The notes below the pieces were generated by a model. That model was not told the DNA's origin. It worked only from the letters and a program-made list of their open reading frames with translations, and searched no databases. This document shows, piece after piece, positions 3,716-22,648 of a stretch of 33,718 nt of DNA (position 1 is the first letter of the stretch; every line of letters begins with the position of its first letter). Origin of the DNA: Candidatus Methanoxibalbensis ujae (GTDB lineage: Archaea > Halobacteriota > Syntropharchaeia > Alkanophagales > Methanospirareceae); the NCBI GenBank assembly GCA_026134085.1, contig JAOQIN010000018.1, forward strand, positions 1-33,718, read 5' to 3'. A program made the translations under genes and the position numbers.

Positions 3716-3793
3716 GATCACTCTCTCCATAATACCATAATTTAATTGATTCCAGCCTTTTAAATCTATTGATGAGCCGCCGAGCCAAATTTC

Positions 3794-3853: not shown

Positions 3854-4555
3854 TCAAAGGTCGAGCCACGAAGTTGATGAGGGCGAAGTGGAGGCATCAT
3901 TTTCTACACTTTCTTTGGGGAATTCCATGGTTTATCTATTAATTAAATATGCAAAAGCGAATGCAAAAGCGCAAAACCACACTGGACAACCGCACCCGCT
4001 GCATAACAAGGGTTTGAGCAAAACTTGCGAAGCCGAATGCCATGAAGTCAGCCAATTTATAATATTGCTGGCTATTCTTTCCGGTCTTTCAGGCTTCATC
4101 CAACATCATATATGTCCAGCGGATGAATTGGATGCTCAAATACCAACAACACAGAATCTGCGTTCTCAAGCAAAAGATGTTGAGAGCATAACTGAAAAAA
4201 AATTTGGGAATCTCTCTTTATTTGCACATATTCAGTATCACTTTTGATTTCACCTCCCATTTCAATTTCACCTCCTATCGTAGCATGACAAAGTGAGAGA
4301 GGTGGCATCGACGATCGCCGTTATCGTATTGAAGACATACAATATCTTTCGCCTCTTCGAGTGACTCCTCAGGTAACCTCCTTATCGCCTTATTAGTATT
4401 TTCCAGTCATCTCGTATAATCGCTTGCAGCTAATGCTCGGGCGAGGAGTGGAATTGCCCGACCACGGCTACTTTTGCCAGCGTTATTATTGCTTTTATTG
4501 TATAATTTTTTTTATAAAAAAATAAAAAAAATAATATTTACTGTACTGCGCATGC

Positions 4556-5830
4556 TTACGCCACACCCTCAATTTCATCCACTATTTCTGTCGCTATATC
4601 CTCCAGCGGTGGCATTGACGACATTGCAGTAGTCTTTCCACACTTCGGGCAGTAAGACCAGCATGCGCAATCCGCATCTAATTCCTGACCTGTCTCCGGG
4701 TCCTGCAAGTCAACATACCATACAGCACTGAAAGGCGTTTCGCCCCATTCGCCTATGTGGAACGGCACTTCAAATGTCTTATTGAAGTTTGCTGGTAATG
4801 TCACTCTGTATATTTGTCTCCAATACCCAAACGTAGGAACGCCAAGGTACAATTTGAATATTACTGGATCGTCTGTTGGATTGGAGATATCCATGGTAAC
4901 CTTCATATTGTCGCAAGGACAGTATTTGAATTTGTCTGTGGAGATTGATACCGAGGGCTTTTCTTCTGCTAATAGCCACTCTACAATATTTGACAATAGT
5001 AGTTTTTCCTCATCTGTAAGTATCTCTGGATAGTAGCTGGGATGTAAAGGGGTCATATCTCCACAGAACACTGCTTTTCCTGATCCATACTCAACTGCAG
5101 CTAAGACAGGAGGATATGAAGTATAATAGGTTGAATTGGCGTCATCGTCTCCTTTTGCTATGATTTTAGATGGTAAATCCACATTTAAAGAGCAACCTGC
5201 ATAGTAACCGAAGCTTTCTACTCCTTCTGTTATTGGATGTGTCTCGAGAATATGAATAAGTGGCCAATAATAGGTCCCGTTTACATTATCTGTTGGATCA
5301 TAAACTGTGTCATCGTTGAATGTAACACCGAACTCTTGGGAGACTGAATTTGTTGTAGTATCTCTTCCGTATTCTCCAAAGACCCATATTCCTCCACCAT
5401 CTTCGACATAACTCACTATAGAATCGATTTCAGAACTCGTAAATTCGATTTCAGCATAAGGTATCAGAAATATATCATATCCTTCTAACCTGCTGCGGGT
5501 TATAGGTCCTGTGCTGAGTTGATCTACTATCCATCCCTGAGATACGAGATAATCTGTGAATCCGCTTACATTAAAAGTCTGACCATGAGTGCGATCAATT
5601 AACATTTTTCCCTGTGATAATATGGGTTCCGAAATTTTTTGATTTTGATTTTGATTTTGATCTTGATCTTGATTCATTGGAGGCAGCACTCCTTCTGTTG
5701 CGTCAGCATCATTATCGGCTTGCACACTTGCTGTAATTGCTCCAGCCATACCTATTAGCCCAGCCATACCTATTAGCAATACCGCGCAAACCGTCAACAC
5801 CACCGCTTTTCTTCTTTTTTTGCTTTTCAT
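4556..5830 (-). CDS. Secreted protein with a DUF4350/GldG-IFT52-like (class I glutamine amidotransferase-like) domain and an Ig-like C-terminal domain
   Basis: Basic N-terminus plus hydrophobic helix, QDQNQNQNQ linker, LIDRTHGQ, YVEDGGGIWVFGE, HPITEGV, YGSGKAVFCGD, LLSNIVEWL; GAGGTG RBS. Confidence 0.75.
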   Translation of the reverse strand: MKSKKRRKAVVLTVCAVLLIGMAGLIGMAGAITASVQADNDADATEGVLPPMNQDQDQNQNQNQKISEPILSQGKMLIDRTHGQTFNVSGFTDYLVSQGWIVDQLSTGPITRSRLEGYDIFLIPYAEIEFTSSEIDSIVSYVEDGGGIWVFGEYGRDTTTNSVSQEFGVTFNDDTVYDPTDNVNGTYYWPLIHILETHPITEGVESFGYYAGCSLNVDLPSKIIAKGDDDANSTYYTSYPPVLAAVEYGSGKAVFCGDMTPLHPSYYPEILTDEEKLLLSNIVEWLLAEEKPSVSISTDKFKYCPCDNMKVTMDISNPTDDPVIFKLYLGVPTFGYWRQIYRVTLPANFNKTFEVPFHIGEWGETPFSAVWYVDLQDPETGQELDADCACWSYCPKCGKTTAMSSMPPLEDIATEIVDEIEGVA

Positions 5831-8940: not shown

Positions 8941-9128
8941 ACAATTCCTAATTTTGCGCAACTCAAAAGCAGTTGATACTTTTTCTGTTCTCTGTGCTAT
9001 GGTTATCACAGATAGAAAGATGTTTGAACATTACAATAGTCTGTGGGCTCAATAATGCAAAACCGTGGGCTCAATAACGCAAAACCAGCGAAATCATCGC
9101 CAGGTTCAGTTTTATTCTCCCTATATTC

Positions 9129-10772
9129 CTACTTTTCCCTCTTTGCTCTGATATCTTTGGCCTCTTCCCTTAACTTTTTAAAATATTCGGTCTCCGTTAT
9201 CTCAGAAACCGCTTTCTTCGTCTTCTCTCTGTCTATCTTAATCTCAAGCAACTTTACCTTCCGCTCCAAATTCTGGCTGTATTTCTTCAACCGCTCAATC
9301 TCAAGTTCTCTTATCTTTGTCTCTTTCTCCACGAGTTCATTCGTGTACCTCTTCAAGTCAGAAGCCATCTTATTGAATGAATTGGCAAGGTCTTCAAGCT
9401 CATCGCCTGTCTTTACTTTGATCCTATAGTCAAGGTTCCCGCCACCTATGATTTCGGCACCCTTTTTGAGTGCCACGATTGGCTTCGTTATCAGCCTTGA
9501 GAGCAAAACAGCAATCCCGAAGACCGCGAGAAGTATAACAATGAAAATGCCAATGAAGCTCTTCAGCATGTCATTTATTTGCCTGTTGATATGTTCGCCA
9601 GTATCCTGTGTGGCAGCGATTATTTTGCTCTTCGTGGTCAGTGCTGGTGCTATTATCTCCTCAACTGGCATCACTATACCCACGCTCCAATTTACACAGG
9701 TGATGGGTGCGTAAGCAATGTATTTCTCACCATCATCAAATCTGCATTTGGCGACACCCGTATTGCCTTCAATCATATCCTCCGCTATCTTCCTCAACTC
9801 CGGATTATCGCTTTGGAGCAGATTCTCCGCTTCAAAGGGTTCATCCCATCTTCTGTCCCCGGCTGATAATCCGGGACGGGCGATAACGTTGCCATTGTCA
9901 TCTATCAAAAAGGCATATCCAAGTTCGCCTACTTGTGTGTTTATGATTCTCCTATTGATTGTTTCCGTGCTCATATCGGCTCCAACCACGCCAATCAGTT
10001 TATTTCCTGAGTCATAGACAGGTCTTGAGCAGGTGACTATTAACCTGCCAGTATCGGCATCAACATATGGTCCCGACCAGCAAATGTCGCCGGTTTCTTT
10101 TGCTCTCTTATACCATCCGCGAACTCTGTGGTCAAAGGAAGGACTTATCCCGGAAGTCCATGGATACAACTGGAGTATGCCAGATTCTGTTCCAAAATAG
10201 ACCCATGCCAAATTTGGATCGTTGGCATAAACAGGTATGAAAATGTCGTCCATCTTATTGGTCAGGTTCAGCTCCTCTCTCACCGCATCTACTGCGACAT
10301 CTGCTGCCAGCACGTAGACAGAAGTCGCATACACGTCATCCGGTTTCTCCTCTTGAGAGTAAGAGTGCCGGTATCCGGGCGATGGAGGATTTTCCCAGAG
10401 AGCGGAGGCAAACTCTGCCATGACATTCACTTCCGCTTCAACCTTTTCGAATATCGTATTGCTGATGGCTGCCTGATCCTTTGCCAGACGAAGCAGATAT
10501 TCCTCCGACTGATTTTCCAACGCTTCAACGCTGTCATTCACCGCACTTTCTCCCAAATAGGTGCTGCTTTGTAGGGCATAATCGCCCACCTCTTTTATGT
10601 TGTTAAATGCAACATATCCCAACAAACCAAAAGAAATGATAAACAGTCCTGAGAATGCTATCAGGATTTTAGTCCTTATTTTGAATTTCGGCGTCATGAC
10701 ACGGTTTACACTGACACAGTTGTTTTGTTGAGCTGGCAACGGCACTGCTCGTTCCGTGTCGATCTGTGTCAA
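9129..10772 (-). CDS. Membrane sensor: TM-dCache-TM-HAMP plus short coiled-coil tail, no kinase, MCP or enzyme output
   Basis: Two TM helices, Cache motif FDHRVRGWYK...WSGPYVDADTG, HAMP ITKPIVALKKG...GDELEDLANSFNKM, tail IKIDREKTKKAVSEITETEYFKKLREEAK. Start could be 10697. Confidence 0.88.
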   Translation of the reverse strand: MTQIDTERAVPLPAQQNNCVSVNRVMTPKFKIRTKILIAFSGLFIISFGLLGYVAFNNIKEVGDYALQSSTYLGESAVNDSVEALENQSEEYLLRLAKDQAAISNTIFEKVEAEVNVMAEFASALWENPPSPGYRHSYSQEEKPDDVYATSVYVLAADVAVDAVREELNLTNKMDDIFIPVYANDPNLAWVYFGTESGILQLYPWTSGISPSFDHRVRGWYKRAKETGDICWSGPYVDADTGRLIVTCSRPVYDSGNKLIGVVGADMSTETINRRIINTQVGELGYAFLIDDNGNVIARPGLSAGDRRWDEPFEAENLLQSDNPELRKIAEDMIEGNTGVAKCRFDDGEKYIAYAPITCVNWSVGIVMPVEEIIAPALTTKSKIIAATQDTGEHINRQINDMLKSFIGIFIVILLAVFGIAVLLSRLITKPIVALKKGAEIIGGGNLDYRIKVKTGDELEDLANSFNKMASDLKRYTNELVEKETKIRELEIERLKKYSQNLERKVKLLEIKIDREKTKKAVSEITETEYFKKLREEAKDIRAKREK

Positions 10773-10798
10773 TAATTTATTTTCCCGCCTTTGTTTCT

Positions 10799-11203
10799 TT
10801 ACTGTCTTACCTTCCTCTCAAGTGCGCTCCAGATATTCAAAGGAACTTTCTTCGGCTTCTTCCTTGCAATAGCAACCTCGTATTTTCTTTCCCCTTTTTC
10901 CATCGTCTCGTTTATATATCCCCGCTCAACAAGACTCTCAGCTATACCTCTCACAGATTCTTCCTCCATTCCCAATTTCTCAGATAACTCCGCGGGACTG
11001 GCTCTCCCCATTTTTGTCAGTTCCAATACGATTCTCCGATGAGGTGGACGTAAATCAAGAAGCTCGGTCACCGCAATGCCTTTCTTTCCTCTCGCTTTCT
11101 CCACTTTCGCGTTCAACACCTCTTCTATTCTGTCCACTCGCTGCCGTATCCCTTTTATTTCCTCCAGCACAAACAAATACGTCTCTGTATCTCCCTCTTC
11201 CAT
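10799..11203 (-). CDS. Winged-helix (MarR/TrmB-like) protein
   Basis: ASPAELSEKLGM...LVERGYI wHTH, N-terminal coiled coil, C-terminal KKVPLNIWSAL. Start at 11203 after GAGGAGGAAAGG. Confidence 0.8.
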   Translation of the reverse strand: MEEGDTETYLFVLEEIKGIRQRVDRIEEVLNAKVEKARGKKGIAVTELLDLRPPHRRIVLELTKMGRASPAELSEKLGMEEESVRGIAESLVERGYINETMEKGERKYEVAIARKKPKKVPLNIWSALERKVRQ

Positions 11204-11217
11204 TCTTCCTTTCCTCC

Positions 11218-11430
11218 TCAATCTATTTCCGGCATCTCTATCGGAGATGGCTGTGGCTTGCATATCCCGCACCACAAAGCATTCGACACCGCTATCGCCT
11301 TTGGAACATCCTCATCGTGGTCATACACAGTTAACACAAACGGCATCTCTTTTGCATGCTCCTTGCATATTGCTCTTCCACAGAACTGGCAAACACCACT
11401 CGCATCCTTTTCACATGTCCAGCATTTCAT
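11218..11430 (-). CDS. DUF2180-like small zinc-finger protein
   Basis: MKCWTC...CQFCGRAICKEH...WCGIC; RBS GAGGAA. Confidence 0.8.
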   Translation of the reverse strand: MKCWTCEKDASGVCQFCGRAICKEHAKEMPFVLTVYDHDEDVPKAIAVSNALWCGICKPQPSPIEMPEID

Positions 11431-11475
11431 TTCCTCAATCTCCCTTTTATTTTTGTTTGCATGGCTTAAATCGCA

Positions 11476-11529
11476 TCAGAATTCAGAGCATAACTTCTCC
11501 ATCTTCTCCATCCCTTCCTTTGCTGTCAT
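11476..11529 (-). pseudogene. 17-codon ORF MTAKEGMEKMEKLCSEF, possible collapsed RiPP precursor
   Basis: Strong RBS AAGGAG-taaaa-ATG, internal direct repeat gatggagaa x2, resemblance to both ends of the 18752-18973 precursor. Confidence 0.3.
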
Positions 11530-11674
11530 TTTTACTCCTTCTTTATTATCAAACATCATACTATTGCATTTAAAACTTCCAATTGATTTTAAAAAACTTT
11601 CAATCGTTTTTAACAAACTTTCGGCAAACAGTGAACAGCTGCATTGACAATATTGTCATTATAGCGCCACATGA

Positions 11675-13462
11675 CTACCAAAAATAATCCCTTATTGCAC
11701 GCTGATCGATAGAACTGTTTTCAACTTTCTGTCGCATTTTCTCAAAAATCGATTTACACACATTGAAGTGCTTGTAATCCGAAGTTTTCGGGCTTTTTAT
11801 CTTTATAAGCATTAAGTCTCTGACAGTGAGCATGGTCATTGCCATGGAAACGCAACTTCTGTGATAATATTTAAGCAACAGGTTTTCAATTTCATCGGGT
11901 TTGTACTTTTTGCTAAGCAGAAACAGAGCATCGCGAAATGCAAACAGATGTTCCTGGCTCTCCCTTTTAACTTCGTAGCGATTGAAAAACGCATCCATTT
12001 TTTTATAGCTCTCCTCGTAGTTGCCCACTTTGTGATATAACAACGCAAGCAAGTATTCCGGAGGTATCAGATACTCTTCAGGTATCATTGAGTTGAATAT
12101 TGATTCTATCCACCCATACGGCTTTTCTTCCTCCGGAATTTCCGGGCATGCAAGAAAAGACTCAATGAATGTTATCAACTCAGATATTTCGGGAACCGTG
12201 CTAATGGCGAGATTATCGTAAATCTTCCGTAATTCTGTTGTCCTACAAAGTTTGATTTTCTTGAATGTGTCCGTGGTCTTCCATGGCAGATTATATTTTA
12301 CAGGAGAATACTTTGTGATGTAAACATAATAAGTTGGGAAATTTAAAAACGAGAGGTCCTTCACAAATATATTGGAACCGCTGGAAATAATGAGTTCCCT
12401 GAAGATTTTGAGGTCTTCCTCGTAGGATGATGAATCCTCAAAAGCGCTCCATGGTTTGAATTCATAGGTTGGTTTCCCATAAAAAATGCCCTCTGGTATC
12501 TCTCCTTTACCTCTACTGTATTGAGCAATATAATTAACGGTTCTTTTGATGTCCACTTCTGTGCACGGTTCTGCAAATGGGTCTTTTCCCAATCTCAGTT
12601 CTTTGCCCAGTTCAGAAATCTCATCTCCACTGAAGCCCTGATATAACTCGGTAAGAGCATGCTCCAGGGCATAATCAAAGACCGGATGTGAACCGAGCGA
12701 AAATTTATACCGCCCTGTAACCTTATTCACAGCTATTACTCCCACCACCGGGAAATCACGACCTAAGGAACAATCTTTTACTGTAATTGAGATGTCTTTA
12801 TCAGCTAAGGCTTCAATAATTTTGTAACTGTGTGAATTTTTTATGTATTCATCGGGAATGGTAGGAGGGATTACGTTCCCGGCATAGATCTGTTTCAACG
12901 CCTCCCTTTCCAGGATCTCACATATTCCCGCTACTATGGCTTCTGCCGGTGTATTGCCTGCGCACATGCCATTGCTCCCGGTAGTTAAAAGCATATTTGG
13001 ATGTGGTAAGAATACCACTGTGTCATTTTTAACATCGTAAAATTTATCCACATATATGGGACCAGAAGAATCTATTATCAACTCTTCGCATACTTGCCGA
13101 ATATCTGGTTCACATTTGTTATCATTAATTGAATAAAGCATATCTAAATTGTCAATTTCTATCATATCCGGAATTATGCGAAGAATATCCGTTTCGCTTA
13201 GTCCGATTTTTGAGTCAAAGATGATAAGATTTTGCATTCTCTCTATTAATTCCGCTAAAGCACCTGCAACCGCAAATTCCTTATTTGTTCCTATTCCATT
13301 TTGTGCCAGAGCTTTAATACCTTCCAATGAATAAGAGCAGGAAAATAGAATTCCGTCAACACTTTTCAACTCCTCCTGGCGAACTGTAATATCCATGTTT
13401 TTCAATATCTGCGTAATTCTTTTAATTGTATTTTCCGGTGTATCCGCCTTATATGTTCTCAT
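11675..13462 (-). CDS. ycaO: YcaO-family protein with long helical (TPR-like) C-terminal extension
   Basis: YKADTPENTI, ALAELIER, GSNGMCAGNTPAEAIVAGICEILER, ALEHALTELYQG; no C-terminal PxP motif. Confidence 0.9.
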   Translation of the reverse strand: MRTYKADTPENTIKRITQILKNMDITVRQEELKSVDGILFSCSYSLEGIKALAQNGIGTNKEFAVAGALAELIERMQNLIIFDSKIGLSETDILRIIPDMIEIDNLDMLYSINDNKCEPDIRQVCEELIIDSSGPIYVDKFYDVKNDTVVFLPHPNMLLTTGSNGMCAGNTPAEAIVAGICEILEREALKQIYAGNVIPPTIPDEYIKNSHSYKIIEALADKDISITVKDCSLGRDFPVVGVIAVNKVTGRYKFSLGSHPVFDYALEHALTELYQGFSGDEISELGKELRLGKDPFAEPCTEVDIKRTVNYIAQYSRGKGEIPEGIFYGKPTYEFKPWSAFEDSSSYEEDLKIFRELIISSGSNIFVKDLSFLNFPTYYVYITKYSPVKYNLPWKTTDTFKKIKLCRTTELRKIYDNLAISTVPEISELITFIESFLACPEIPEEEKPYGWIESIFNSMIPEEYLIPPEYLLALLYHKVGNYEESYKKMDAFFNRYEVKRESQEHLFAFRDALFLLSKKYKPDEIENLLLKYYHRSCVSMAMTMLTVRDLMLIKIKSPKTSDYKHFNVCKSIFEKMRQKVENSSIDQRAIRDYFW

Positions 13463-13959
13463 CTCATTGCGTTGAATTTATTTTATTTATATTATATGGC
13501 TCAGCTTCACTTCATTATCGCCACTTTCTTCTGGATCTCTGAAATCACCTCCGGCTCACCATCCCAAACAGCAGGTCCGGAGAGGTTGCGGAGAAGCTAA
13601 GTGCAGTTTTAATTCAAACTCAATATAACTCAATATAAGCAAACTGACACTGCCGCGCTGTACATTGAATTGCTCCACCAGACCCTATCAGTATTTCGCA
13701 CAGCCTGCTGTTCCTTCGAGCAGGAATGGGGAAGGAGCAGATCAATGGGGAAACAATGGGGATAGCCACAATCGGAGAAAAACCCGATGTCAGGAACGAG
13801 TATCCTGCGATGCCGACCTCTCGGAGCGTACAGAGAAGAGATGTCCTCAATCGACTCAATCGTAACCCTTATCATACCTTTATCCAAATAGAGGAGCGCG
13901 GGAGGGGAGTGAGGTTTTGACCTTCCATGTCTGAACCTCCTTCAACACCCAGAGAGATT

Positions 13960-14115
13960 CTTCTGGCTGAGATTCTGCGTGAGCTTGTTTGGATCACAGA
14001 TGCGCTCCCATACACTTCCCATCTTCAGGAGGACATAACCGAGAATGCAGACCATGATATGGACCCATGACCGTCCGTCATCATCAGGACAGGTTGATCT
14101 CTTCCGTTTCGACAT
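13960..14115 (-). pseudogene. Possible DDE transposase (IS4/IS1634-like) C-terminal remnant
   Basis: Minus-strand translation WVHIMVCILGYVLLK resembles the conserved 'H-(I/V)-x-x-C-x-L-(A/G)-Y-x-L' end of these transposases; boundaries approximate. Confidence 0.3.
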
Positions 14116-14261
14116 GGTGGATATTATGCTATCCTATCATAGGCGTGCAATTGGTAAATACGGAGAACTTCGTTTTCGTTGACTTATTCCATGAAGTTGG
14201 AGGAGTGGGGGTTATATAATCCATCATAGTTATCCATATGCGGAGGTGAAAAAGAGAGAAG

Positions 14262-16226
14262 ATGAAAAAGGAAATAGCATTGGTGATTTGTGTGGGAATA
14301 ATAACAGCAGCGGCGGCTTCTGCATTTACTGCCAAAGTGGGAATATCAAGCATAGCATCAGAACCATCGGATACAGAACCGATGGAAGAGACGGGAATAG
14401 AGAGACTTCAGCAGAGGATTTATGAGCAGGGCTATAATTATACGGTGGCTGAAAACTGGATTACCCATCTTTCACCGGAGGAAAGAGAGGCTCTCTGCGG
14501 CTACAAACCACTGAAAGCACCTGAAGAACCACCAGCCGAAAATGTCGGATTTTTTTCTCATATGCCTGAAACAAAAATAGAAGCCGAAATCGAATCACTG
14601 CCCTCTTCTTACGATGCGATGGCGCTTGGATATGTGACTCCTGTTAAGAACCAGCACGAGCCACACCGGTGTAGCAGCTGTTGGATCTTCGGGGCAGTAG
14701 CAAACTTTGAATCTGCTGTTGCAAAAAACGAATCCATTCTGTTTGATTTCTCTGAGCAGGAAGTTGGTGACTGCAATATCTGGTCTCGTGCTGGAGGGCA
14801 CAATTTCTGTGAGGAGGGGAATTCACTTATGAGCACAAACTACCTCACCAAATACGGCTCTGCAGATGAAACATGCGCTCCATACGCGGCGGAACCGCAA
14901 GCATGTCGAAATTGCACTGTACTCAGAAACGTGGATAACTGGAGGATAATCACAGGGTATAATGGCGAAAGCGAAGAAGCCATAGCCACAATAAAAAACG
15001 CCATACTTAATTATGGACCAGTAGCGACAACCATGTATGCGAGTGATCCGGGATTTCTGAATTACAGTGGTGGCGTCTATGAATACTGGGGGCCAGAACC
15101 TCCAAACCATCTCGTACTGATTATCGGCTGGAATGACACACTGAGACATTCACACGGAACCGGGGCATGGCTGATAAAGAACAGCTGGGGAACCTCATGG
15201 GGTGCTTCTGGACCATATCCTGGATGCGCCTGGGTGGCTTATGGCGCGGCAAACATAGGTGATTTCACAAACACGATTGCGAGCTACAAGAACCCGGGTG
15301 ACGAGATATTCTATCACGACGAATGCGGCTGGATGCTCTATGGCTTTGGTTATAACGCGACCACAGCTTACGGAGCAGTTCGTTTTATACCCGAGCAGGA
15401 CGCAATACTGACCGCAGTTGACTTCTGGGCAGTAGATGCAGGGATGACATACGAGATCAAAATATTTGATACATTGAACGACCTGGGAGATAACTACACT
15501 TTCAGCGACCCGCTCGGCACCACTCAAGGAACCACAAATGAACCGGGATATTATTCAATACCACTTGATACGCCGGTGCAACTGGAGAGAGGGGATGACT
15601 TCATCGTGCAGCTCAAATTAACGACTTCAGGAGCGGGTTATCAAATACCAATTGATTACTGTGGGGAGTCATGGCTGAACTGGTCGTCAATAGCTACATT
15701 CTCGGGGGAGAGCTACGTGAGTTGTGATGGATCACAATTTGAGAAACCATTTATCCCCGGTGTCGGTTATGTGGACATAGGAATAAGAGCGAGGGCAGAA
15801 GTTCCGCACCTCATCTGGGATACAGGGCAGCCAGAAAATCCATATCCAAGCATATCTGGCACACACTATGGAACAATAACACCAGATAGGACAATATACA
15901 ATGTGTCCAGACTCTACACATATCCATGCCCGGGAACAGGCGGGCATTCGGAATATGCCGCTTTCTACAATGCAACGACGGGGGAAGAGATAGCAAATGG
16001 CACCTGGAATGGTTATCAGGGAGCAGGCAATTACATAGAATTTAATGTGCCTTTCGATTTGCAGGCAAATGTTACATACAACTACATCATTCACACGGGT
16101 TCCTACCCACAAATTCATCACAAACCTGCGCTGCGGACGGCAAATGGATGGATAAACTGCACAAAGTTCATAGATGCAAATGGAAAGACATACACGGATT
16201 GGATACCGGCGATAAGATTGGAATAA
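14262..16226 (+). CDS. Secreted papain-family (C1A) cysteine protease with lectin-like domain and archaeal C-terminal domain
   Basis: Signal peptide, VKNQ...CSSCW, NHLVLIIGW, IKNSWG, C-terminal PYPSISGTHYGTI...WIPAIRLE; GGAGGTGA RBS. Confidence 0.92.
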   Translation: MKKEIALVICVGIITAAAASAFTAKVGISSIASEPSDTEPMEETGIERLQQRIYEQGYNYTVAENWITHLSPEEREALCGYKPLKAPEEPPAENVGFFSHMPETKIEAEIESLPSSYDAMALGYVTPVKNQHEPHRCSSCWIFGAVANFESAVAKNESILFDFSEQEVGDCNIWSRAGGHNFCEEGNSLMSTNYLTKYGSADETCAPYAAEPQACRNCTVLRNVDNWRIITGYNGESEEAIATIKNAILNYGPVATTMYASDPGFLNYSGGVYEYWGPEPPNHLVLIIGWNDTLRHSHGTGAWLIKNSWGTSWGASGPYPGCAWVAYGAANIGDFTNTIASYKNPGDEIFYHDECGWMLYGFGYNATTAYGAVRFIPEQDAILTAVDFWAVDAGMTYEIKIFDTLNDLGDNYTFSDPLGTTQGTTNEPGYYSIPLDTPVQLERGDDFIVQLKLTTSGAGYQIPIDYCGESWLNWSSIATFSGESYVSCDGSQFEKPFIPGVGYVDIGIRARAEVPHLIWDTGQPENPYPSISGTHYGTITPDRTIYNVSRLYTYPCPGTGGHSEYAAFYNATTGEEIANGTWNGYQGAGNYIEFNVPFDLQANVTYNYIIHTGSYPQIHHKPALRTANGWINCTKFIDANGKTYTDWIPAIRLE

Positions 16227-16367
16227 GATTGGAGAGCACACCCCGCTAAATATGCGCTTATCAACGCAAACTTATAGGCATATTTTCTCCCCGACTTCAC
16301 AATCTCCACAGGACCGCGAACTCTGATTGAAGAGCGGATCTTTGATCAACTGAGATATCTCTCTGTT

Positions 16368-16424
16368 TGGCATTGCCTGAAAAAGCTGGCATTGCCTGAA
16401 AAAGCTGGCATTGCCTGAAAAAGC
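16368..16424. repeat. Perfect 19-bp tandem repeat x3
   Basis: tggcattgcctgaaaaagc three times head-to-tail, no spacers. Confidence 0.95.
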
Positions 16425-16693
16425 GCAGCAGGACTGGCACAGGCATGAACATGAGAGATTGCATTTTGAGAAGGTGCTCGCATCGAGCAGATAGATGATT
16501 TATAAATCTCTGTGATAATCTGCCTGATAATCTGCCAAAAGTCCAGATTTATTTCAGCAGTAACAATCACATCTCCTCACAGGTTTACCGTTGGTCTACT
16601 GGAATTTGAAGCTCCTCACCACCTCCTGGTTTTGACTTCTTTATTTCTGCCCAAAAGCAGCGGAATTCGTGTGACATGACATTTTCATCCTCA

Positions 16694-17620
16694 TCACAAA
16701 ACCCTGAGTACTTTCTCCTTTTCCGACTTCCATCTGTTTGAAAGCTCTTCACAACATTGAATCAGGTGATCTGCATAGCCTATCAAGTATCGCCCTTTAA
16801 GACGAACACCACGATCTCGTGCCAGACGAGCATATTTCTTTGCCGTGTGCAGAACCGATTCCAGAGCATCAGTGAACAGAAAAGCCCTGAGGACGAAATC
16901 CTCAGGCGGCGGTGTGGAATCAGACCATCCAGCGCGGAGAATAACTTTGGTGAGCAAATATCCATAGTGTTGAGCTTGCAAGTCATCACGCCAGTCCTGC
17001 AACTGGTCTATCAAATCAAAGACGACCTGAGTGTAGTCAACGAACTGAGCGAGTGGCTCGACTGCTTCCTCATGTCCCGCTAAAAGAGCTACTGGTATCG
17101 CAGATAATTTGGACACGGCTGCTTTGCGAGCAATTAACAGGAGGTCCTCCTCGCGGTAGTCACGCAATTTGCCCCAGTGAGAGGATTCTTCCCATGAAAT
17201 GCTTTGCGTCCATTCTGTAATGTATTGCTCCAGATAGTTCCAGAAAGGAGAATCCGCGGGAAAGAGCTCCTGATACTGCCTCATCATCTCCGTAAACAGA
17301 ACAATGCCAAACGGCGAAAGTTTTTTCCAATCTCCGCTGCTTTCATCCATTATCCTGTCCTGAAGAAAGACGTAATATGATGCGAGGCATCCGGGCAGGG
17401 CAACAGAACGAATCACATCCCTGGGAAGATCATAAATATCCCCCACCCAAAAAGGAAGAACCACGGTGTAGGGACAGGGATGCCAGGGCAGGCGATGAAA
17501 AAATTCTTTCCCCAGATCACTGAGTGGCGAAGGAAGATTTTGTGCATATTCACGGAATTTTGCTCCCAGCCAGTCGCTGTCTTCCTTAAAATCTGAGTAG
17601 CCGATAAATTCAGCAACCAT
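16694..17620 (-). CDS. Class I isoprenoid-synthase-fold protein (putative peptide prenyltransferase)
   Basis: Degenerate aspartate-rich motifs LQDRIMDE and IDQLQDWRDD, IARKAA; helical character. Start at 17620 after GGGAGG, overlapping the end of the GGR gene. Confidence 0.75.
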   Translation of the reverse strand: MVAEFIGYSDFKEDSDWLGAKFREYAQNLPSPLSDLGKEFFHRLPWHPCPYTVVLPFWVGDIYDLPRDVIRSVALPGCLASYYVFLQDRIMDESSGDWKKLSPFGIVLFTEMMRQYQELFPADSPFWNYLEQYITEWTQSISWEESSHWGKLRDYREEDLLLIARKAAVSKLSAIPVALLAGHEEAVEPLAQFVDYTQVVFDLIDQLQDWRDDLQAQHYGYLLTKVILRAGWSDSTPPPEDFVLRAFLFTDALESVLHTAKKYARLARDRGVRLKGRYLIGYADHLIQCCEELSNRWKSEKEKVLRVL

Positions 17621-18659
17621 TTTGCCTCCCTCTAAGTAAATCAAAATAAACGCGTGGGAAGTGAGAATAAAAAGAAAGGAGTGTGCGGGAGCTGTTAAAC
17701 ATGGGCATTATCTCACTATCCACCGCATCCTGGTAGGGTTTTAGATCTATCTCTCCCTCTTTGAGACACTTCTCCACTACGGGTGCGGCAAGCTGAGCGC
17801 TTTTCATCGCATAATAAATCCCCTCTCCCCACATGGGGTCTGTTAGCCCTGCGCTGTCCCCCAGGAGAAGAATCCTTCCGCGCTGGATAGGCTCCTCGGG
17901 ATTGCGAGAGGGCAGTAGATGCGACTTAAATCTTTCTACGCTTGCGCTCTCCAGTCCAAGGGAAGATAAAAGCTTCATAACATACGGCTTTAACTCCCTT
18001 ACAAATTGCATATGAGTTCCGGCACCTACGGAAAGGTATTCTTTCCTTGGAAAGACCCAGCCATACCCCCCGGTCACCACACCGAAGTCAATTTTGATTG
18101 TCGAATCCAAATTTTCCTTATTTCGTGGAGCTTTAACATTTGCGGACATCGCAATCCTTGTCTCTACCCCTCTCATCAAGCCTGCGGATCTCGCGGTAAT
18201 TCCGTATGCGCCATCGGCTCCGATAATTATTGGTGCGGTAAAAGTATGATTTGCTGTGAAGATTTTCACCTCATTTGATAAAATTTCCAATTTCTTGACT
18301 TCTTCCCCATCAACAATGGAAGCTCCTGCCTCCTCTGCCTTCATCGCAAGAAAATAATCAAATCTATCCCGTCTTACGGTATAGCCCACTGGCGTCTGAC
18401 CATGCACGGTGAACTCTTCGCCGAGCTCAAAACTAAATGTGATATTATAAATGACCTGTTCCACCAGTGGGCTTATGTCAAAATTGATAATTTCAGTCGC
18501 CTTTGTTGACACCAGCCCGGCACAGGTTTTATCACGAGGAAGCTTCTCCTTATCAATAATCAGGACATCCAAACCTCTCTGCGCCAGCTCACAGCCTGCT
18601 GTTGCACCGGCAGGACCAGCTCCAATCACAATAACATCATACGAACTTCTGGTAGCCAT
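17610..18659 (-). CDS. Geranylgeranyl reductase family FAD-dependent oxidoreductase
   Basis: DVIVIGAGPAG, PRDKTCAG, RDRFDYFL, IGADG, GYGWVFP, GDSAGLTDPMWGEGIYYAMKS. Confidence 0.92.
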   Translation of the reverse strand: MATRSSYDVIVIGAGPAGATAGCELAQRGLDVLIIDKEKLPRDKTCAGLVSTKATEIINFDISPLVEQVIYNITFSFELGEEFTVHGQTPVGYTVRRDRFDYFLAMKAEEAGASIVDGEEVKKLEILSNEVKIFTANHTFTAPIIIGADGAYGITARSAGLMRGVETRIAMSANVKAPRNKENLDSTIKIDFGVVTGGYGWVFPRKEYLSVGAGTHMQFVRELKPYVMKLLSSLGLESASVERFKSHLLPSRNPEEPIQRGRILLLGDSAGLTDPMWGEGIYYAMKSAQLAAPVVEKCLKEGEIDLKPYQDAVDSEIMPMFNSSRTLLSFYSHFPRVYFDLLRGRQNGC

Positions 18660-18685
18660 TTTTCCTTTCCAAACACAAAAGTGGA

Positions 18686-18706
18686 GGGGGAAAAAATTAA
18701 CCCCCC
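18686..18706 (-). terminator. Possible stem-loop between the precursor and GGR genes
   Basis: ggggg-aaaaaattaa-ccccc inverted repeat; on the minus strand it is followed by pyrimidine/T-rich sequence. Confidence 0.35.
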
Positions 18707-18751
18707 AACTCCAGCTTCTACTATTTCGGGCTGCTCAGGATGCACGCTTTT

Positions 18752-18973
18752 TTATACTCCGTAGCGAGCCACGCATGTTTTACTCGCCACTTTCTCAACC
18801 ACTTCACTCATGCTCGCGGTATCTATCGATTTGAGCACTTCCGCCTGGTCGGGAGTCAGGTCAATACCCTCCTTCTTCGCAGCTGCCACGGGGTCTTCAA
18901 TGAACTCCTTTCTGAAAGCCTCGTCAGATAGCACCTTGCCCACAAGCCTGTTCAACTCCTCTTTTGTTGCCAT
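18752..18973 (-). CDS. RiPP precursor, NHLP clan (Os1348/Franean1_4349-like leader), putative core TCVARYGV
   Basis: Leader LVGKVLSDEAFRKEFIEDPVAAAKKEGIDLT matches the nitrile hydratase-like leader pattern; 73 aa; lies directly downstream of the rSAM/SPASM gene. Confidence 0.85.
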   Translation of the reverse strand: MATKEELNRLVGKVLSDEAFRKEFIEDPVAAAKKEGIDLTPDQAEVLKSIDTASMSEVVEKVASKTCVARYGV

Positions 18974-19003
18974 TTTTATCGTCAGTTTGTTACCATACTG
19001 CCG

Positions 19004-19063
19004 TATTTAAAATCTCCAACCGATTTTAAAAATTTTTAAATTTTTTTAAAAAATTTATTAATT
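19004..19063 (-). promoter_or_regulatory. Putative TATA box and AT-rich upstream element for the precursor gene
   Basis: Minus strand TTTAAATA about 30 nt upstream of the ATG, preceded by an almost pure A/T, partly palindromic tract; no SD sequence. Confidence 0.5.
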
Positions 19064-19082
19064 TCTCGCATCCTCGCACGGT

Positions 19083-20486
19083 TCACTTTTCCCGAGCAGC
19101 TCCTTTCCAGAAAGCATTGACTTCAGTCTGAGGAAGAAGCAGCAAAAAAACTCCCGGATTACGCCTACGCAGCTCAGCATAGAGCCAGATGGAAAGCTCG
19201 ATGATGTGCCTGTTGAGCTCGCACTCGAAGTGGTTGGGTTGCCAGGGGTCGCCGTTTGTCTCGATTGCCATCGAAATACAACCCCCTGCGCATAGATAAC
19301 GAGCCCAGCAATTCCGACAGGCAGGAATGCGGTCAACATCGCCCAGCCTTTCTCTCCAATAGCTCAGCTTCCGCCAGTCCACTCCCCTCCATACATCGCC
19401 AACTTCACAGCTTTCCCTCCCCGCCAAATCCGCACAGGGATACAGTTTACCGTCAGCCGACACACCCAGCATGTTTACAGCAGCACCGCAAAAATGTGAG
19501 CGCCGGTGCCCCGCGCAAAGCGTTAGCATATAGCGCAAAAAAGGACCTCTGGCGGAGATGTCATCTCGCAGAGCTTCTTCAAGAAATAACTGCGCTAACT
19601 GCGTATATGATCTCTTAAGGCGCTCGTAATCGCTGTCTGCGAGCCCGAATTCAGCTTCAACTCCTCCCGCGTGGTTCACTCTGACATAGCCAGCACCCCA
19701 CTGCCTCAGGTGTTTGAATGAAGCCACAAGATCAGGCGTCTGAGGGGTAAGAGTGGCCCGTAATTCCACCTTCTCTCCATAGTCTTCGAGCAGTTTGGGG
19801 AGCCAACGACTTATCACCCCGTAGGAGCCTCTGCCATCGGGGAATACTCTCATCCTGTCGTGCGTTTCCCTGTCGCCATCCAGGCTGATCTGGACTTCGA
19901 TCTGGTTCTCCTTGATGAAGGAGATAATATCGTCGTTGAATAGCGTACCGTTGGTGGCTATCAAGAACTTTGCCTTCTTCCGCTTGCGTTCTGCTTCAAC
20001 TTGAGCATATTCCACTGCTGATTTTATCGTTTTGAAGTTCAGTAACGGTTCGCCACCTGTGAAGATGAGGGAAATTGTCTCGCTCTCGCGTGACTCACGG
20101 AGGAGAAGATCAACAGCCGCTTCCGCAACCTCCGGCGACATTTTTCCTCGCTTTCCACCGGATGTATAGCCCTTTTCAAGAAAACAATATCTGCATCGCA
20201 GATTACAGTCCTGCGCGATGTTGAGCTCAAGGGTGTCAATTTCAGGTGAAACATCTTTTTTATCTCTTTTCACAGGTGGCGGTTGTTCCCGCCCGAGCAA
20301 CCCTTTTTCCTCCAAACTGCTGATTGTCTGAACGAACTGCCGGTTCAGTTTCATCATTGCTATTTCCCTGTCGGGCAGCGCAAGTATTTCCGCTTCAAGA
20401 GGTGAGAGGTTAAAGACGCGCATTCTACGAACATCAAGGGCATACCAGCCCCCACGATAAAAACAATGGACTTCCGCCTTAAGCAT
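19083..20486 (-). CDS. Radical SAM/SPASM peptide maturase (CteB/PapB/QhpD-like)
   Basis: CNLRCRYC, FTGGEPLL, ATNGTL, SLDG, SPASM CGAA...YPC...CRNCWARYLCAGGC...C; N-terminal RRE-sized extension. Start probably 20486, just after the upstream stop. Confidence 0.92.
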   Translation of the reverse strand: MLKAEVHCFYRGGWYALDVRRMRVFNLSPLEAEILALPDREIAMMKLNRQFVQTISSLEEKGLLGREQPPPVKRDKKDVSPEIDTLELNIAQDCNLRCRYCFLEKGYTSGGKRGKMSPEVAEAAVDLLLRESRESETISLIFTGGEPLLNFKTIKSAVEYAQVEAERKRKKAKFLIATNGTLFNDDIISFIKENQIEVQISLDGDRETHDRMRVFPDGRGSYGVISRWLPKLLEDYGEKVELRATLTPQTPDLVASFKHLRQWGAGYVRVNHAGGVEAEFGLADSDYERLKRSYTQLAQLFLEEALRDDISARGPFLRYMLTLCAGHRRSHFCGAAVNMLGVSADGKLYPCADLAGRESCEVGDVWRGVDWRKLSYWRERLGDVDRIPACRNCWARYLCAGGCISMAIETNGDPWQPNHFECELNRHIIELSIWLYAELRRRNPGVFLLLLPQTEVNAFWKGAAREK

Positions 20487-20493
20487 CCGATTC

Positions 20494-21882
20494 TCAGCAC
20501 TGCTTCCGCTTTCTGATTGCATTCCAGGCATCTCGCACCCCACTCCAGATTTTCACACTCATCGAACCCACAAGAGGTATCAATATTATCAAACCGATGA
20601 GTGTCAAAATTACTTTACCCATCCAGTTGCTCCACAATAAATTGAACATCATCTGAAAGTTGCTGTGCCATAGCTCCACCAGTAACAAAATAGCCACTAC
20701 TGCCCAGATTGCCGCCATAATACCGAATGCAGTGAATATTTTCTCCTCGCGGTTGAACTTCTCTCTTCTGCTCAACTTCTGCCACAGGGGACCTTTAATG
20801 AACTCAAACGATTTAGCTCGCAAGCCTGGAATTTCCAGATAATTCACCAGTATGTAATATCCATCCCATTCAAGGAGAGGGTTCATGTTCATCAAGACGT
20901 TAAGCATGCCCAGGAAAGCAGCCTGGAAAAGGAGGGGTGCCATCGCAGACGAAGGGAAGAGGGCAATTAGAACAGCACATACAGAACCGATAATTAATCC
21001 CGCATAGGGTCCCGCCCAGGAAACAGCGATTCGCTGCTTCCGCGTTCCCAACCACATATCCGTCGTGTCAACGAACATGCATGGATTTCCCCAGTAAAGC
21101 ATGATGCCTCCGCTGATTATCTTCCTGCCGTAAAATTTGACTGTGAGCCCATGACCGTGTTCGTGAATGAAAGTGATTACCATGTTCAGCAAAATCAGGG
21201 TGAGAATCCCCAGACCGTATGAACCCGCGGTTTGAAAGAGGGGATAGTCACCTCCAATGAATTCCCAGATGAAAAGGGGAACACCAACCACCGAGAGGAT
21301 AATGAAAAGTATCATGGCAGGAGGGGAGAAGAAAAGCCAGCCTCCGTGACGATAAATCCAATCGAAGTATCTGTCGGCATCAATGCTGATCTGAGCTTGG
21401 GATACTTTTTTCCACATGCGTACCAGTTGAGACCTGAAGCTCTTAGCACCAAAGCGATTCCAGATGAGCCCATAGAGATCAGGCGTCTTTTCCTCCAGGA
21501 ATCCGTTGCTTTTGAGCTGAGTCAACAGACTGCTCAACTGTTCAAACGGCGGTGAGCCATATTTGTTGAGGTAGGCTATGGCAAGGTCAGTGATCGAATG
21601 CCTCCCATCCATCAGGTTCCAGAGGAAGAACCCGCGGGGATCCAGTTGGAGATAGGTATCAGTTTTGGTGTTATGGAGAATGAACCTTTCCTCACCGCGG
21701 AATTGCTGCTTTGAGATTTCTACGGTGCTCACACCTTTCGGCTTGAACTTGGAGAAATCCAGTCTCTCGCGCAGTGTTGTCCAGAGGTCCTGAGCAGGTT
21801 GCTGTGCTTGCGCTTCCTTCGCTCTTTTCTCCAACTTTGCCCATAAACCCTGCTGCGTCTTTTCTCTCTCTTCCTCTGACAT
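20494..21882 (-). CDS. PqqD/RRE domain fused to M50 (site-2 protease) membrane metallopeptidase
   Basis: YLQLDPRGFFLWNLMDGRHSITDL (RRE), HEHGH, AGP, NMNPLLEWDGY, several TM helices. Start at 21882, one base after the MinD stop codon. Confidence 0.88.
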   Translation of the reverse strand: MSEEEREKTQQGLWAKLEKRAKEAQAQQPAQDLWTTLRERLDFSKFKPKGVSTVEISKQQFRGEERFILHNTKTDTYLQLDPRGFFLWNLMDGRHSITDLAIAYLNKYGSPPFEQLSSLLTQLKSNGFLEEKTPDLYGLIWNRFGAKSFRSQLVRMWKKVSQAQISIDADRYFDWIYRHGGWLFFSPPAMILFIILSVVGVPLFIWEFIGGDYPLFQTAGSYGLGILTLILLNMVITFIHEHGHGLTVKFYGRKIISGGIMLYWGNPCMFVDTTDMWLGTRKQRIAVSWAGPYAGLIIGSVCAVLIALFPSSAMAPLLFQAAFLGMLNVLMNMNPLLEWDGYYILVNYLEIPGLRAKSFEFIKGPLWQKLSRREKFNREEKIFTAFGIMAAIWAVVAILLLVELWHSNFQMMFNLLWSNWMGKVILTLIGLIILIPLVGSMSVKIWSGVRDAWNAIRKRKQC

Positions 21883-21883
21883 C

Positions 21884-22648
21884 TCAGACGTTGAGAATCC
21901 TCTCTGCAATTTCTTCGATTCCCTGTGAGAAGGGATGCTCGCGATGGTTGAGATAAAAGATTTCCTTACTTCCGATCTCAATCAAATCATCGGACTGCGG
22001 AAGAACGCCTGCAACGTCACATTTGTACACATTTTCTATATCGTGCTTCACCTTTTCAAAATCGTATGTCTGGAGCACTTTATTCATGACCAGAAACAGA
22101 TTTGGCACTTCCAAACGCCTGCAAACTTCTAATGTAACGCTTGTCCCCTGGTAGTCCTGATTGTCAGGTCTCAGAATGATCAGCGAGATATCAGCTATTG
22201 CGAGCGATAGCAGGGTCTCCTCTCCGATGCCCGGATGCGTGTCTATAAACAAAAAGTCCAGATTCAGCGCGCGGATTGCTTCTGTAAACCCGTCGTTCAG
22301 CAGCGAAACCTCATACCCCTCCTTTAATATCCTCGCTATCTCGCCCATCTTCATGCTTGAGGGAATAAGATACACTTTTCCCCCTGCCTCTTCAACGCCA
22401 GCCAGGTTCTTTGTGACGTCCTTCGCCGCCTCTTCTATCCCGCACTTTCCCCACAGGTAATCGTTTAACGTCTTTCCCATGCTCTCTGGCTCAAACCCAA
22501 ACAACACATGTATTCCAGGCGATTGAATATCTGTATCAACAATGCCCACGCGCTTGCCTTTGCAGGCGATGCACGTGGCTATGTTTGCTACTATATTTGA
22601 TTTTCCTGTTCCACCTCTAAAAGAATGTACTGCTACTATTTTTCCCAT
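21884..22648 (-). CDS. MinD/ParA-family ATPase
   Basis: HSFRGGTGKSN deviant Walker A, VDTDIQSPG, IDTHPG, LRPDNQDYQGT; RBS GAGGAGAGAG. Confidence 0.92.
   Translation of the reverse strand: MGKIVAVHSFRGGTGKSNIVANIATCIACKGKRVGIVDTDIQSPGIHVLFGFEPESMGKTLNDYLWGKCGIEEAAKDVTKNLAGVEEAGGKVYLIPSSMKMGEIARILKEGYEVSLLNDGFTEAIRALNLDFLFIDTHPGIGEETLLSLAIADISLIILRPDNQDYQGTSVTLEVCRRLEVPNLFLVMNKVLQTYDFEKVKHDIENVYKCDVAGVLPQSDDLIEIGSKEIFYLNHREHPFSQGIEEIAERILNV

Follow-up and report, generated by a model that had tools for sequence, protein, structure and literature searches.

A Candidate Archaeal RiPP Cluster Pairing a PalQ-Family Prenyltransferase with a Radical SAM/SPASM Maturase

Contig JAOQIN010000018.1 of Candidatus Methanoxibalbensis ujae (assembly GCA_026134085.1; the window analyzed here is the entire 33.7-kb contig, 33,718 nt, of a 1.99-Mb genome that is 89% complete) carries, between positions 9129 and 22648, a group of genes, A–K, that probably, although with considerable room for doubt, includes a pathway for a peptide made on the ribosome and modified after translation (a RiPP). 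We propose that this pathway is built on a triad of a precursor peptide (D), a radical S-adenosylmethionine (rSAM) enzyme with a SPASM domain (C), and a PalQ-family prenyltransferase (F), that its product would be a prenylated, cross-linked peptide, and that genes I, J, and K would form its regulatory arm. A preliminary description of this DNA had treated the first block of genes as one RiPP system with isoprenoid chemistry; this idea gains weight from the homology of F to PalQ-type enzymes, the existence of F-rSAM fusion proteins, an isoprenoid isomerase gene in diverged loci, and a fold model of F with D.

F Is Probably a Divergent PalQ-Family Prenyltransferase

F (16694–17620, minus strand; ATG at 17620, in an open reading frame [ORF] extending to 17644) is a protein of 316 residues with no match in Pfam or NCBIfam. 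An AlphaFold model built on an alignment of its relatives (predicted local distance difference test score [pLDDT] 84.8; predicted template modeling score [pTM] 0.86) gave 44 Foldseek matches in the PDB at E ≤ 0.001, among which geranylgeranyl diphosphate and decaprenyl diphosphate synthases have TM scores of 0.70–0.74; the TM score to the prenyltransferase Ord1 is 0.61. The model thus predicts an all-α isoprenoid-synthase fold of the trans-polyprenyl diphosphate synthase type. A word-index search identified 11 relatives of F among 2308 candidates, and a profile search of 1.84 billion representatives yielded 1538 relatives at E ≤ 0.001, of which 111 have E ≤ 1e-30.

Two of the family members, P0011, which F alone matches with E 3e-22 and 28% identity, and P0015, a Paenibacillus protein with the NCBI name "class 1 isoprenoid biosynthesis enzyme", contain all six of the residues named for PalQ (K39, D89, D93, Q197, D200, and D204; PMC10853753). 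These two proteins served as proxies for PalQ; F was compared with the proxies, not with PalQ's own sequence. The two DxxxD pairs of F, D96/D100 and D213/D217, which correspond to the metal-binding aspartate-rich motifs, first and second (FARM and SARM), are invariant in 11 of 11 sequences, and the SARM aligns to the DDxxD motif of polyprenyl synthases, in weak profile matches only (E 0.11–1.8). Because F is homologous to P0011 and keeps both DxxxD pairs, we assign it, through the proxies, as a putative divergent PalQ-family trans-isoprenyl-synthase-like peptide prenyltransferase.

The Precursor D and Its Predicted Complex with F

D (18752–18973, minus strand) encodes a 73-residue precursor with an Os1348/NHLP-type leader and a core that ends ...EKVASKTCVARYGV. 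It passes NF038399, "Os1348 family NHLP clan", with 75.5 bits against a cut-off of 40. The leader is conserved among nine precursors, and Cys67 is their only invariant core residue; it is followed in each by four to six mostly hydrophobic residues, at least one of them aromatic. Examples of the cores are SKTCVARYGV, SKGCVIRYGV, SKGCSYHLG, and SKGCVMQW, and that of the window ends in RYGV. At one related locus, L010, the 47 nt that end the precursor gene and code for the core (5365–5411) are repeated in tandem just past the stop codon (5420–5466), with 72% identity and with a stop interrupting the second copy.

Structure prediction of the F-D complex gave a score of 0.66 (0.66, 0.64, and 0.67 in three runs), with 0.00 for the best control. 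A score at this level is attained by 116 of 157 solved complexes and by 2 of 215 mismatched pairs, counts that apply only roughly here because the F-D model used its own alignments. The runs share at least 62% of their contacts, and the pLDDT of the partner is at least 78. In the model the leader lies on F helices 248–258 and 293–316, and core residues 58–68, including C67, contact F residues 208–216 around the SARM; D residues 69–73 are not confidently placed. The model supports binding of the precursor D by F; to our knowledge, no complex of this kind has been solved.

The Precursor, Maturase, and Prenyltransferase Form a Conserved Core

Scans of public contigs provided nine related loci, eight from metagenomes and one from a single-cell genome, which were compared by tblastn with all window proteins. 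Locus L004 has the gene order of the window. Loci L005–L008 (85%–90% identity) contain B-C-D-F and lack E, and the more diverged L009–L011 (60%–70% identity) contain, on a single strand, B-C-D-E-F, a gene for a type-1 isopentenyl diphosphate (IPP) isomerase (IDI), and A-K-I-J, with no YcaO and no papain-like peptidase. B, C, D, and F are found together in seven of the nine loci, the exceptions being a contig that starts inside E and one remnant, and the triad recurs in G197, the genome of a distant archaeon. In G197, a 77-residue precursor-like gene is followed by a 450-residue rSAM/SPASM gene (32% identical to C) and then by a 319-residue F-like gene; the latter two genes share 10 nt, and unrelated BREX-like genes come after. 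The G197 core ends GCSYHLCG, compared with GCSYHLG in L010.

Domain fusions within the F family point in the same direction. Among 21 members scanned, four carry rSAM/SPASM domains, eight carry squalene-hopene-cyclase-like domains, and two carry methyltransferases; the rSAM half of one fusion, P0054, aligns with C residues 13–458 at 31% identity (E 9e-74). The F-rSAM pairing is independent of the window lineage. Since they recur together in seven metagenome loci, in G197, and, for F and rSAM, as fusion proteins, the precursor D, the rSAM/SPASM protein C, and F are the conserved core of the system.

The system is rare and patchy, with an F relative in none of 60 family relatives and in one (G197) of 400 other genomes of the phylum. 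Its absence from the 60 relatives indicates that it is not housekeeping lipid metabolism. We also considered whether two unrelated units might lie side by side, an rSAM RiPP (B, C, and D) and a set of lipid or terpenoid genes (E, F, and IDI) that acts on free isoprenoids. The geranylgeranyl reductase (GGR) family of E and the IDI family are indeed ordinary lipid-pathway families, and the cyclase-like fusions of eight of the 21 scanned F-family members are in the fashion of terpene enzymes, but these fusions also match the ChrPC-type peptide prenyltransferase-cyclases described in the review PMC13290415. The F-rSAM fusion proteins, the overlapping genes of the G197 triad, the homology of F to PalQ-type peptide prenyltransferases, and an F-D model that passes while its controls score 0.00 all argue against two separate units, which we consider very improbable.

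The single-cell contig (L003, from Candidatus Aerophobus profundus) holds a remnant: at 3590–5603, a truncated A runs into an F that lacks its first 95 codons, and an intact IDI gene comes next. The neighbors are ordinary bacterial-looking genes, and B and the precursor were not found in this genome. We do not accept the contig as proof of a bacterial host; it may represent a remnant, a transfer, or an amplification chimera. Transposase-like ORFs, recognized by eye from translations, flank the cluster or remnants of K in L011 (9419–9571), L010 (640–2057), and L020 (2843–3892), which would fit with mobility.

Maturation Enzymes and the MinD/ParA-like ATPase

The gene family assignments of the preliminary description hold in profile scans and, for F, in the fold model, with the M50 and DUF2180 matches falling below their cut-offs. 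C (19083–20486, minus strand; ATG at 20486, ORF extending to 20543) is an rSAM/SPASM peptide maturase with an N-terminal RiPP recognition element (RRE)-like region, CxxxCxxC at 113–120, and nine further C-terminal Cys residues. Its profile scores, with the respective cut-offs, are 277.5/340 for PapB, 267.9/518.7 for nif11-rSAM, 266.9/453 for QhpD, and 244.2/425 for SCIFF. The nearest solved chain is 5wgg (E 1.9e-59), which we take to be the thioether-forming CteB. Features of the ranthipeptide/sactipeptide type are present throughout: CxxxCxxC, the SPASM Cys set, the RRE-like N terminus, and a Cys in the core of the substrate.

B (20494–21882, minus strand; ATG at 21882, ORF extending to 21981) combines an RRE (PqqD; 28.6 bits, cut-off 23.4) with a polytopic HExxH intramembrane metalloprotease and is likely the leader peptidase. 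The Peptidase_M50 match reaches only 17 bits, below the 27.2 required; B scores best with NF041824, the profile for the daptide intramembrane metalloprotease (143 bits, cut-off 300), in an alignment over 335 of 379 profile positions. B has HEHGH at residue 273 and six hydrophobic segments; its copies in L004–L008, L010, and L011 are 61%–99% identical.

E (17610–18659, minus strand) is a GGR-family flavoenzyme that scores 234.6 bits with TIGR02032 (cut-off 158.8) and is likely a prenyl-chain reductase. Its nearest solved chain, matched over the full length, is the archaeal digeranylgeranylglycerophospholipid reductase 3oz2 (E 2.4e-18). E has the FAD fold and contains GAGPAG, YGWVFP, and GDSAG; GAGPAG, YxWxFP-type, and GDSAG motifs define the GGR family. 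E is optional and polymorphic. In run X6, a contig without E, which skips 17613–18687 (depth 74.7) and has 33 other letters in the gene's place, exists beside a contig with E (depth 158.9). The IDI gene lies after F in L003 and L009–L011, encoding 172–174 residues in the latter three, and its product is above equivalog cut-offs (141 bits versus 127; 129 versus 105.8).

A (21884–22648, minus strand) is a MinD/ParA-like P-loop ATPase (AAA_31 64 bits, ParA 63 bits) with the Walker A sequence FRGGTGKS. It is present in every related locus that extends that far (L004, L006, L007, and L009–L011), and no close homologue was found in the 60 family genomes, where the best match has 31%–34% identity. 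Because A travels with the cluster and has no close homologue in those genomes, we count it as belonging to the system. A role as an Mrp/ApbC-type Fe-S carrier was rejected, the CxxC at residues 26–29 not being conserved in the A proteins of L009–L011. Look-alikes of A and of I in an atlas come mostly from Chloroflexota and Cyanobacteriota, which we note as a lead only.

The Sensor Block and Its Link to the Precursor Gene

Downstream of the biosynthetic genes, all on the minus strand, are I (11218–11430), a 70-residue Cys/His Zn-ribbon protein with a weak DUF2180/B-box-like character (DUF2180 19.4 bits, below 22.2), J (10799–11203; ATG at 11203), a winged-helix DNA-binding protein (HTH_24 22.5 bits, cut-off 21.9), and K (9129–10697; ATG at 10697, ORF extending to 10772), a membrane dCache-HAMP sensor (dCache_1 and HAMP matches) with a periplasmic dCache domain at residues about 51–397, a coiled-coil end, and no kinase or other output domain. 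In two family genomes, at loci L018 (G408) and L019 (G157), a relative of K has its Cache-HAMP sensor, 63%–68% identical, fused to a PP2C-type phosphatase; in G408 the next gene, from its sequence features, is presumably an anti-sigma-factor-kinase-like protein of a partner-switching module. In a tree of K proteins, the output-less forms of the window, G315, G010, and L009–L011 make up one clade (90/96), apart from the PP2C forms.

K, I, and J adjoin the biosynthetic genes in two gene orders, that of the window and the A-K-I-J order of L009–L011, and the copies of I that adjoin K are 62% identical in L009–L011 and 90% identical in the genome G021. In addition, a 60-nt direct repeat, 75% identical and the longest in the 14 kb searched, lies in the promoter region upstream of D (copy 1, 18994–19053, minus strand) and upstream of a mini-ORF and I-J-K (copy 2, 11557–11616, minus strand). 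This repeat explains the joint recorded as "goes back 7437" in three runs. The element is conserved upstream of D in L004, L005, L006, and L008, the L008 copy being identical to window copy 2 over the first 29 of 40 nt compared, and a related element is found upstream of the I gene of G021. A 26-nt degenerate core of the element, at 19006–19031 and 11569–11594 in the window, occurs exactly twice in the 1.99-Mb genome (0 for the reversed-pattern control); as the pattern was derived from these two copies, only its absence elsewhere is informative. In L010, the regions upstream of D and K share a 13-nt match, which is no longer than chance would produce and was left out of account.

At copy 2, the DNA similarity to the start of the D gene extends over some 50 nt of coding sequence and terminates in a 17-codon ORF, MTAKEGMEKMEKLCSEF (11476–11529, minus strand), behind a strong ribosome-binding site, AAGGAG. 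Since the similarity enters the coding region and ends in this ORF, copy 2 looks like what is left of a precursor gene that was duplicated and now drives I-J-K. Operator or relic alike, the sensor block sits behind a precursor-type promoter. In the YcaO-I interval of G021 (L030) there is a 9-residue ORF, MEVCGKVFI, with a strong ribosome-binding site and, like the 17-residue ORF of the window, with a Cys; these Cys-containing mini-ORFs may be left over from duplication of the precursor or may encode small peptides of their own.

The preliminary description had linked the Cache module to the cluster, and the two gene orders, the output-less K clade, and the element shared by D and I-J-K now lend support to that link. 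K, I, and J are probably, from their position and sequence, the system's regulatory or sensing arm. The presence of the same promoter element at D and at I-J-K suggests an autoinduction-type loop like those of ComQXP or PalQXP.

Proposed Pathway and Competing Interpretations

In the scheme that we propose, D would consist of an Os1348/NHLP leader and a C-terminal core of about 7–11 residues with the invariant Cys and a hydrophobic or aromatic tail. The leader would be bound by C and B via their RRE domains and, as in the fold model, by F via its C-terminal helices. C would most likely form an intramolecular thioether ring with the invariant Cys, as CteB, PapB, and QhpD do, and F would take a prenyl group from an allylic diphosphate and attach it to the core, for which an aromatic residue after Cys is the preferred acceptor and the Cys thiol the alternative. 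E, where present, would saturate the prenyl double bond(s), and in diverged loci the type-1 IPP isomerase of the cluster would feed dimethylallyl diphosphate. B would then remove the leader at the membrane and release a small lipopeptide; A would belong to the system with no step assigned to it. Gene identities, homology, conservation, the fusions, and the repeat are observed, whereas the chemistry of each step, the residue that accepts the prenyl group, its chain length, and any sensing are inferred from the genes; the words "cyclic", "isoprenylated", and "sensed" of the preliminary description should be read accordingly as proposals.

A number of observations weigh against this scheme. PalQ rejected nucleophiles other than Trp (PMC10853753), and, according to the 2026 review PMC13290415, all characterized trans-isoprenyl diphosphate synthase (trans-IDS)-like peptide prenyltransferases act on Trp. 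A C-terminal Trp is present in one of the nine cores, that of L011, and D210 in F, three residues ahead of the SARM, stands where PalQ has its Trp-recognizing Gln. Two enzymes, C and F, could both want the single invariant Cys, and C scores under the cut-off of every named maturase family. E is absent from four of the nine loci (L005–L008) and polymorphic in one metagenome, tblastn found no IDI gene in the window, and there is no exporter gene within the cluster. The related loci are kin, so that their synteny is weaker evidence than it may appear. With regard to the sensor block, K and J of L005 and L008 are broken over several frames and I is gone, with B, C, D, and F intact; G021 (93% complete, in 400 contigs) contains H-I-J-K, with F and B not found; the G197 triad has no adjoining sensor; and the 60-nt repeat may be the relic of a duplicated precursor rather than an operator.

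An alternative is a CaaX-like variant in which F S-prenylates the invariant Cys, the protease trims the product, and the rSAM enzyme catalyzes a different step, for instance C-C linkage or linkage to the prenyl chain. The Cys is the sole invariant core residue and lies four to six residues from the C terminus, and in the F-D model residues 58–68, with C67 among them, form part of the interface with F around the SARM. The Trp-recognizing Gln is replaced throughout the F clade: of 165 aligned F-family rows, the 12 with D..DQ..D are the F clade and P0013, and most others have Q..DD..D. Moreover, the HExxH membrane protease B recalls Ste24, a membrane protease that acts in CaaX processing. However, the nearest relatives of C all consume the Cys thiol for a thioether, an aromatic residue follows the Cys in every core, and the G197 enzyme retains the Gln although its core has no Trp; according to PMC13290415, moreover, no trans-IDS-like enzyme is known to prenylate Cys. 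We consider S-prenylation of this kind unlikely and prefer a thioether formed by C, with prenylation by F of an aromatic residue after the Cys.

By analogy, the product of the proposed pathway could be either a signal or an antimicrobial lipopeptide. The resemblance to PalQXP and ComQXP and the shared promoter element favor a signal, while the Os1348 precedent and the decayed sensor genes of L005 and L008 favor an antimicrobial. With the same biosynthesis, the product could thus be an antimicrobial or membrane-active lipopeptide, and the Cache, Zn-ribbon, and winged-helix proteins an ordinary regulator or mere neighbors. Os1348 of Pseudomonas sp. Os17, which gave the precursor family its name, is needed for antibiotic activity (PMC7726476), and membrane-active peptides gain potency through prenylation (PMC13290415). 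L005 and L008 retain B, C, D, and F despite having lost I and carrying frameshifted K and J genes, no sensor lies beside the G197 triad, and the contig resembles a variable island, with restriction-modification genes, a TnpB-like gene, and a phage-type Rep gene. Set against this, D and I-J-K have a promoter element in common, the K-I-J linkage outlasts a change in gene order, the closest characterized relatives, ComQXP and PalQXP, adjoin sensors (PMC10853753), and no immunity or export genes are present. An antimicrobial product with an incidental sensor block is a tentative alternative and, on balance, somewhat unlikely.

A true pheromone, for which F would S-prenylate the invariant Cys CaaX-style, the GGR saturate the chain, the rSAM enzyme form the ring, and the protease release at the membrane a product that the Cache-HAMP protein, with the Zn-ribbon and winged-helix proteins, would detect, acting then on the operator shared by precursor gene and sensor operon, is quite improbable in this complete form. 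If it were correct, F would be the first non-Trp and the first archaeal member of its family, the peptide would bear an archaeal-lipid-like tail, and the system would represent an autoinducing cell-cell signal in the methane-cycling consortia of hydrothermal sediments. For the broader proposal of a prenylated, cross-linked peptide with I-J-K as its regulatory arm, sensing or control of the product by the Cache/Zn-ribbon/winged-helix module would offer a testable handle on cell-cell signaling in uncultured methane-cycling archaea.

The YcaO Protein H and the Peptidase G

The preliminary description had counted a YcaO protein, H (11675–13462, minus strand; YcaO 126.8 bits), among the members of the system, a view that we abandon because H is absent from the three diverged loci L009–L011. 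H is a stand-alone YcaO with a long C-terminal extension, occurs in L005, L008, and G021 only, and is probably a lineage-specific neighbor. Its best family match is the E. coli-type YcaO (133 bits, cut-off 700), and profile scans of the region found no TfuA, E1-like, or dehydrogenase partner. H might instead be a further maturase of the same peptide that introduces a backbone thioamide or azoline: it is on the same strand and lies between the two blocks, it is rare (one of 60 family genomes besides the window), it always adjoins I-J-K in the window lineage (L005, L008, and G021), and Cys-containing mini-ORFs lie just downstream of it. But L009–L011 hold the full system without H; G021 has H, with B and F not found in that genome; between H and the biosynthetic genes lie long spacers and a gene on the opposite strand; and H falls far below the E. 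coli-type cut-off and has no partner gene. A role for H in maturation is accordingly highly doubtful.

The opposite-strand gene is G (14262–16226, plus strand), missing from the preliminary description, which encodes a secreted papain-family peptidase with a lectin-like domain (654 residues; Peptidase_C1 126 bits, Lectin_like 92 bits). It splits the two blocks, with non-coding spacers of about 470 and 800 nt. G is found only in the window lineage (L004–L008), being absent from L009–L011, and is not a conserved part of the system. In the spacer between F and G (16368–16424), a 19-nt unit, TGGCATTGCCTGAAAAAGC, is present in three perfect tandem copies; contigs of runs X4 and X6 skip 38 nt here, which indicates that the copy number of TGGCATTGCCTGAAAAAGC varies between strains.

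Gene Layout, Host, and Occurrence

The preliminary description had listed ten co-oriented genes in 9129–22648. All ten minus-strand ORFs, A–F and H–K, are real and keep their coordinates, but they are not one unit, being interrupted by the plus-strand G. The tight junctions described for the first block are also real: A and B are separated by 1 nt and B and C by 7 nt (using the ATG start of C), and E and F overlap by 11 nt, with GGAGG preceding the ATG of F. The gap between I and J is 14 nt. Just downstream of K (9043–9086), a 22-nt unit is present in two tandem copies that are 95% identical.

The host had been described as an archaeon of the methyl-coenzyme M reductase (MCR) type, in agreement with the presence of mcrA in the same genome, on a different contig from the cluster. 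At least 20 metagenome runs, from 13 hydrothermal-vent and sediment studies, contain near-identical DNA, and the contig itself may derive from one of them. Four runs, each from a different study, cover all 30 bins of the region, so that the cluster is not an assembly artifact. The four runs compared are represented by contigs of DNA runs, and there are no RNA runs among those listed with near-identical DNA.

The rest of the contig (850–3838, 6146–8305, 29406–30026, and 33023–33358) resembles a variable island, with two DNA methyltransferases, an R.Pab1-type restriction enzyme, a C25 (gingipain-family) peptidase, a TnpB/Cas12f-like fragment, and a gene like that for phage replication protein O. 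No tRNA genes that could serve as island markers were found in the window.

Comparison with Known Systems

The preliminary description knew of no characterized cluster with this combination of genes. In part this does not stand, since the combination of an NHLP precursor, an isoprenoid-synthase-fold prenyltransferase, and a sensor has been characterized as PalX, PalQ, and PalP (PMC10853753); the added rSAM enzyme, GGR, protease, IDI, ATPase, and archaeal host are without precedent in the literature searched. Neither a prenyltransferase-rSAM pairing, nor a RiPP prenyl reductase, nor an archaeal member is described in that literature, and archaeal or rSAM-linked members may already appear in the homologue lists and neighborhood surveys behind PalQ and ChrPC. 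According to PMC13290415, only a few systems, all bacterial, are known in which an isoprenoid-synthase-fold enzyme prenylates a peptide, and Trp is the target in each. The uncharacterized family of about 1500 members around F is a target for genome mining.

With regard to individual enzymes, C resembles CteB/SCIFF, PapB (of the ranthipeptides), and QhpD in its RRE-like N terminus, CxxxCxxC, full SPASM Cys set, and Cys-containing core, and differs from them in its sub-cut-off scores, the single Cys of the core, and its coupling, elsewhere a fusion, to a prenyltransferase. B, like the MpaP-type daptide protease NF041824, is an HExxH membrane protease in a RiPP cluster. Daptide clusters are defined by an aminotransferase, a decarboxylase, and a methyltransferase; membership was rejected, given the score of B (143 bits versus 300) and no match to any of the three among 11 region proteins. 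The Os1348 cluster OS3 of Pseudomonas sp. Os17 has a precursor leader of the same family, NF038399, but its partners, a gluzincin/HEXXH peptidase and a predicted dehydrogenase with efflux genes adjacent (PMC7726476), differ from those here.

Among systems with prenylated peptides, the ChrPC-type RiPPs have a trans-IDS-like prenyltransferase domain in fusion with a second enzyme, which remodels the prenyl chain once it is attached (PMC13290415). Compared with that account, the tailoring enzyme here would be a GGR-family reductase, the fusion or neighboring partner is an rSAM/SPASM protein, and the acceptor would not be Trp. In ComQ/ComX/ComP of Bacillus, an isoprenoid-synthase-fold enzyme lipidates a ribosomal peptide; after cleavage, the peptide is detected by a membrane receptor whose gene lies alongside (PMC10853753; PMC13290415). 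According to the same sources, ComQ acts on an internal Trp, ComX has no NHLP leader, and the system includes a two-component kinase output and neither an rSAM enzyme nor a prenyl reductase.

The closest characterized system is PalQ/PalX/PalP of Paenibacillus alvei (PMC10853753). Both it and the present cluster have an NHLP-type precursor with a short C-terminal core and an adjoining gene for a membrane sensor. PalQ is a homodimeric trans-isoprenyl-synthase-like prenyltransferase with two DxxxD pairs, as are found in F, and for F, as for PalQ, a fold model predicts leader-assisted binding. In contrast, PalQ prenylates only a C-terminal Trp, which eight of the nine cores here lack, its Trp-recognizing Gln is an Asp in F, and PalP is a sensor histidine kinase, whereas K is a Cache-HAMP protein without a kinase. 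Beyond what PalQXP contains, the present cluster has an rSAM/SPASM enzyme, an RRE-protease, a GGR, in diverged loci an IDI, a MinD-like ATPase, and an archaeal host. It would take the PalQ-type family into archaea and onto a core without Trp. Prenylation would be joined to radical-SAM cross-linking, a combination also seen elsewhere in single fusion proteins, and a dedicated GGR would in addition saturate the prenyl chain.

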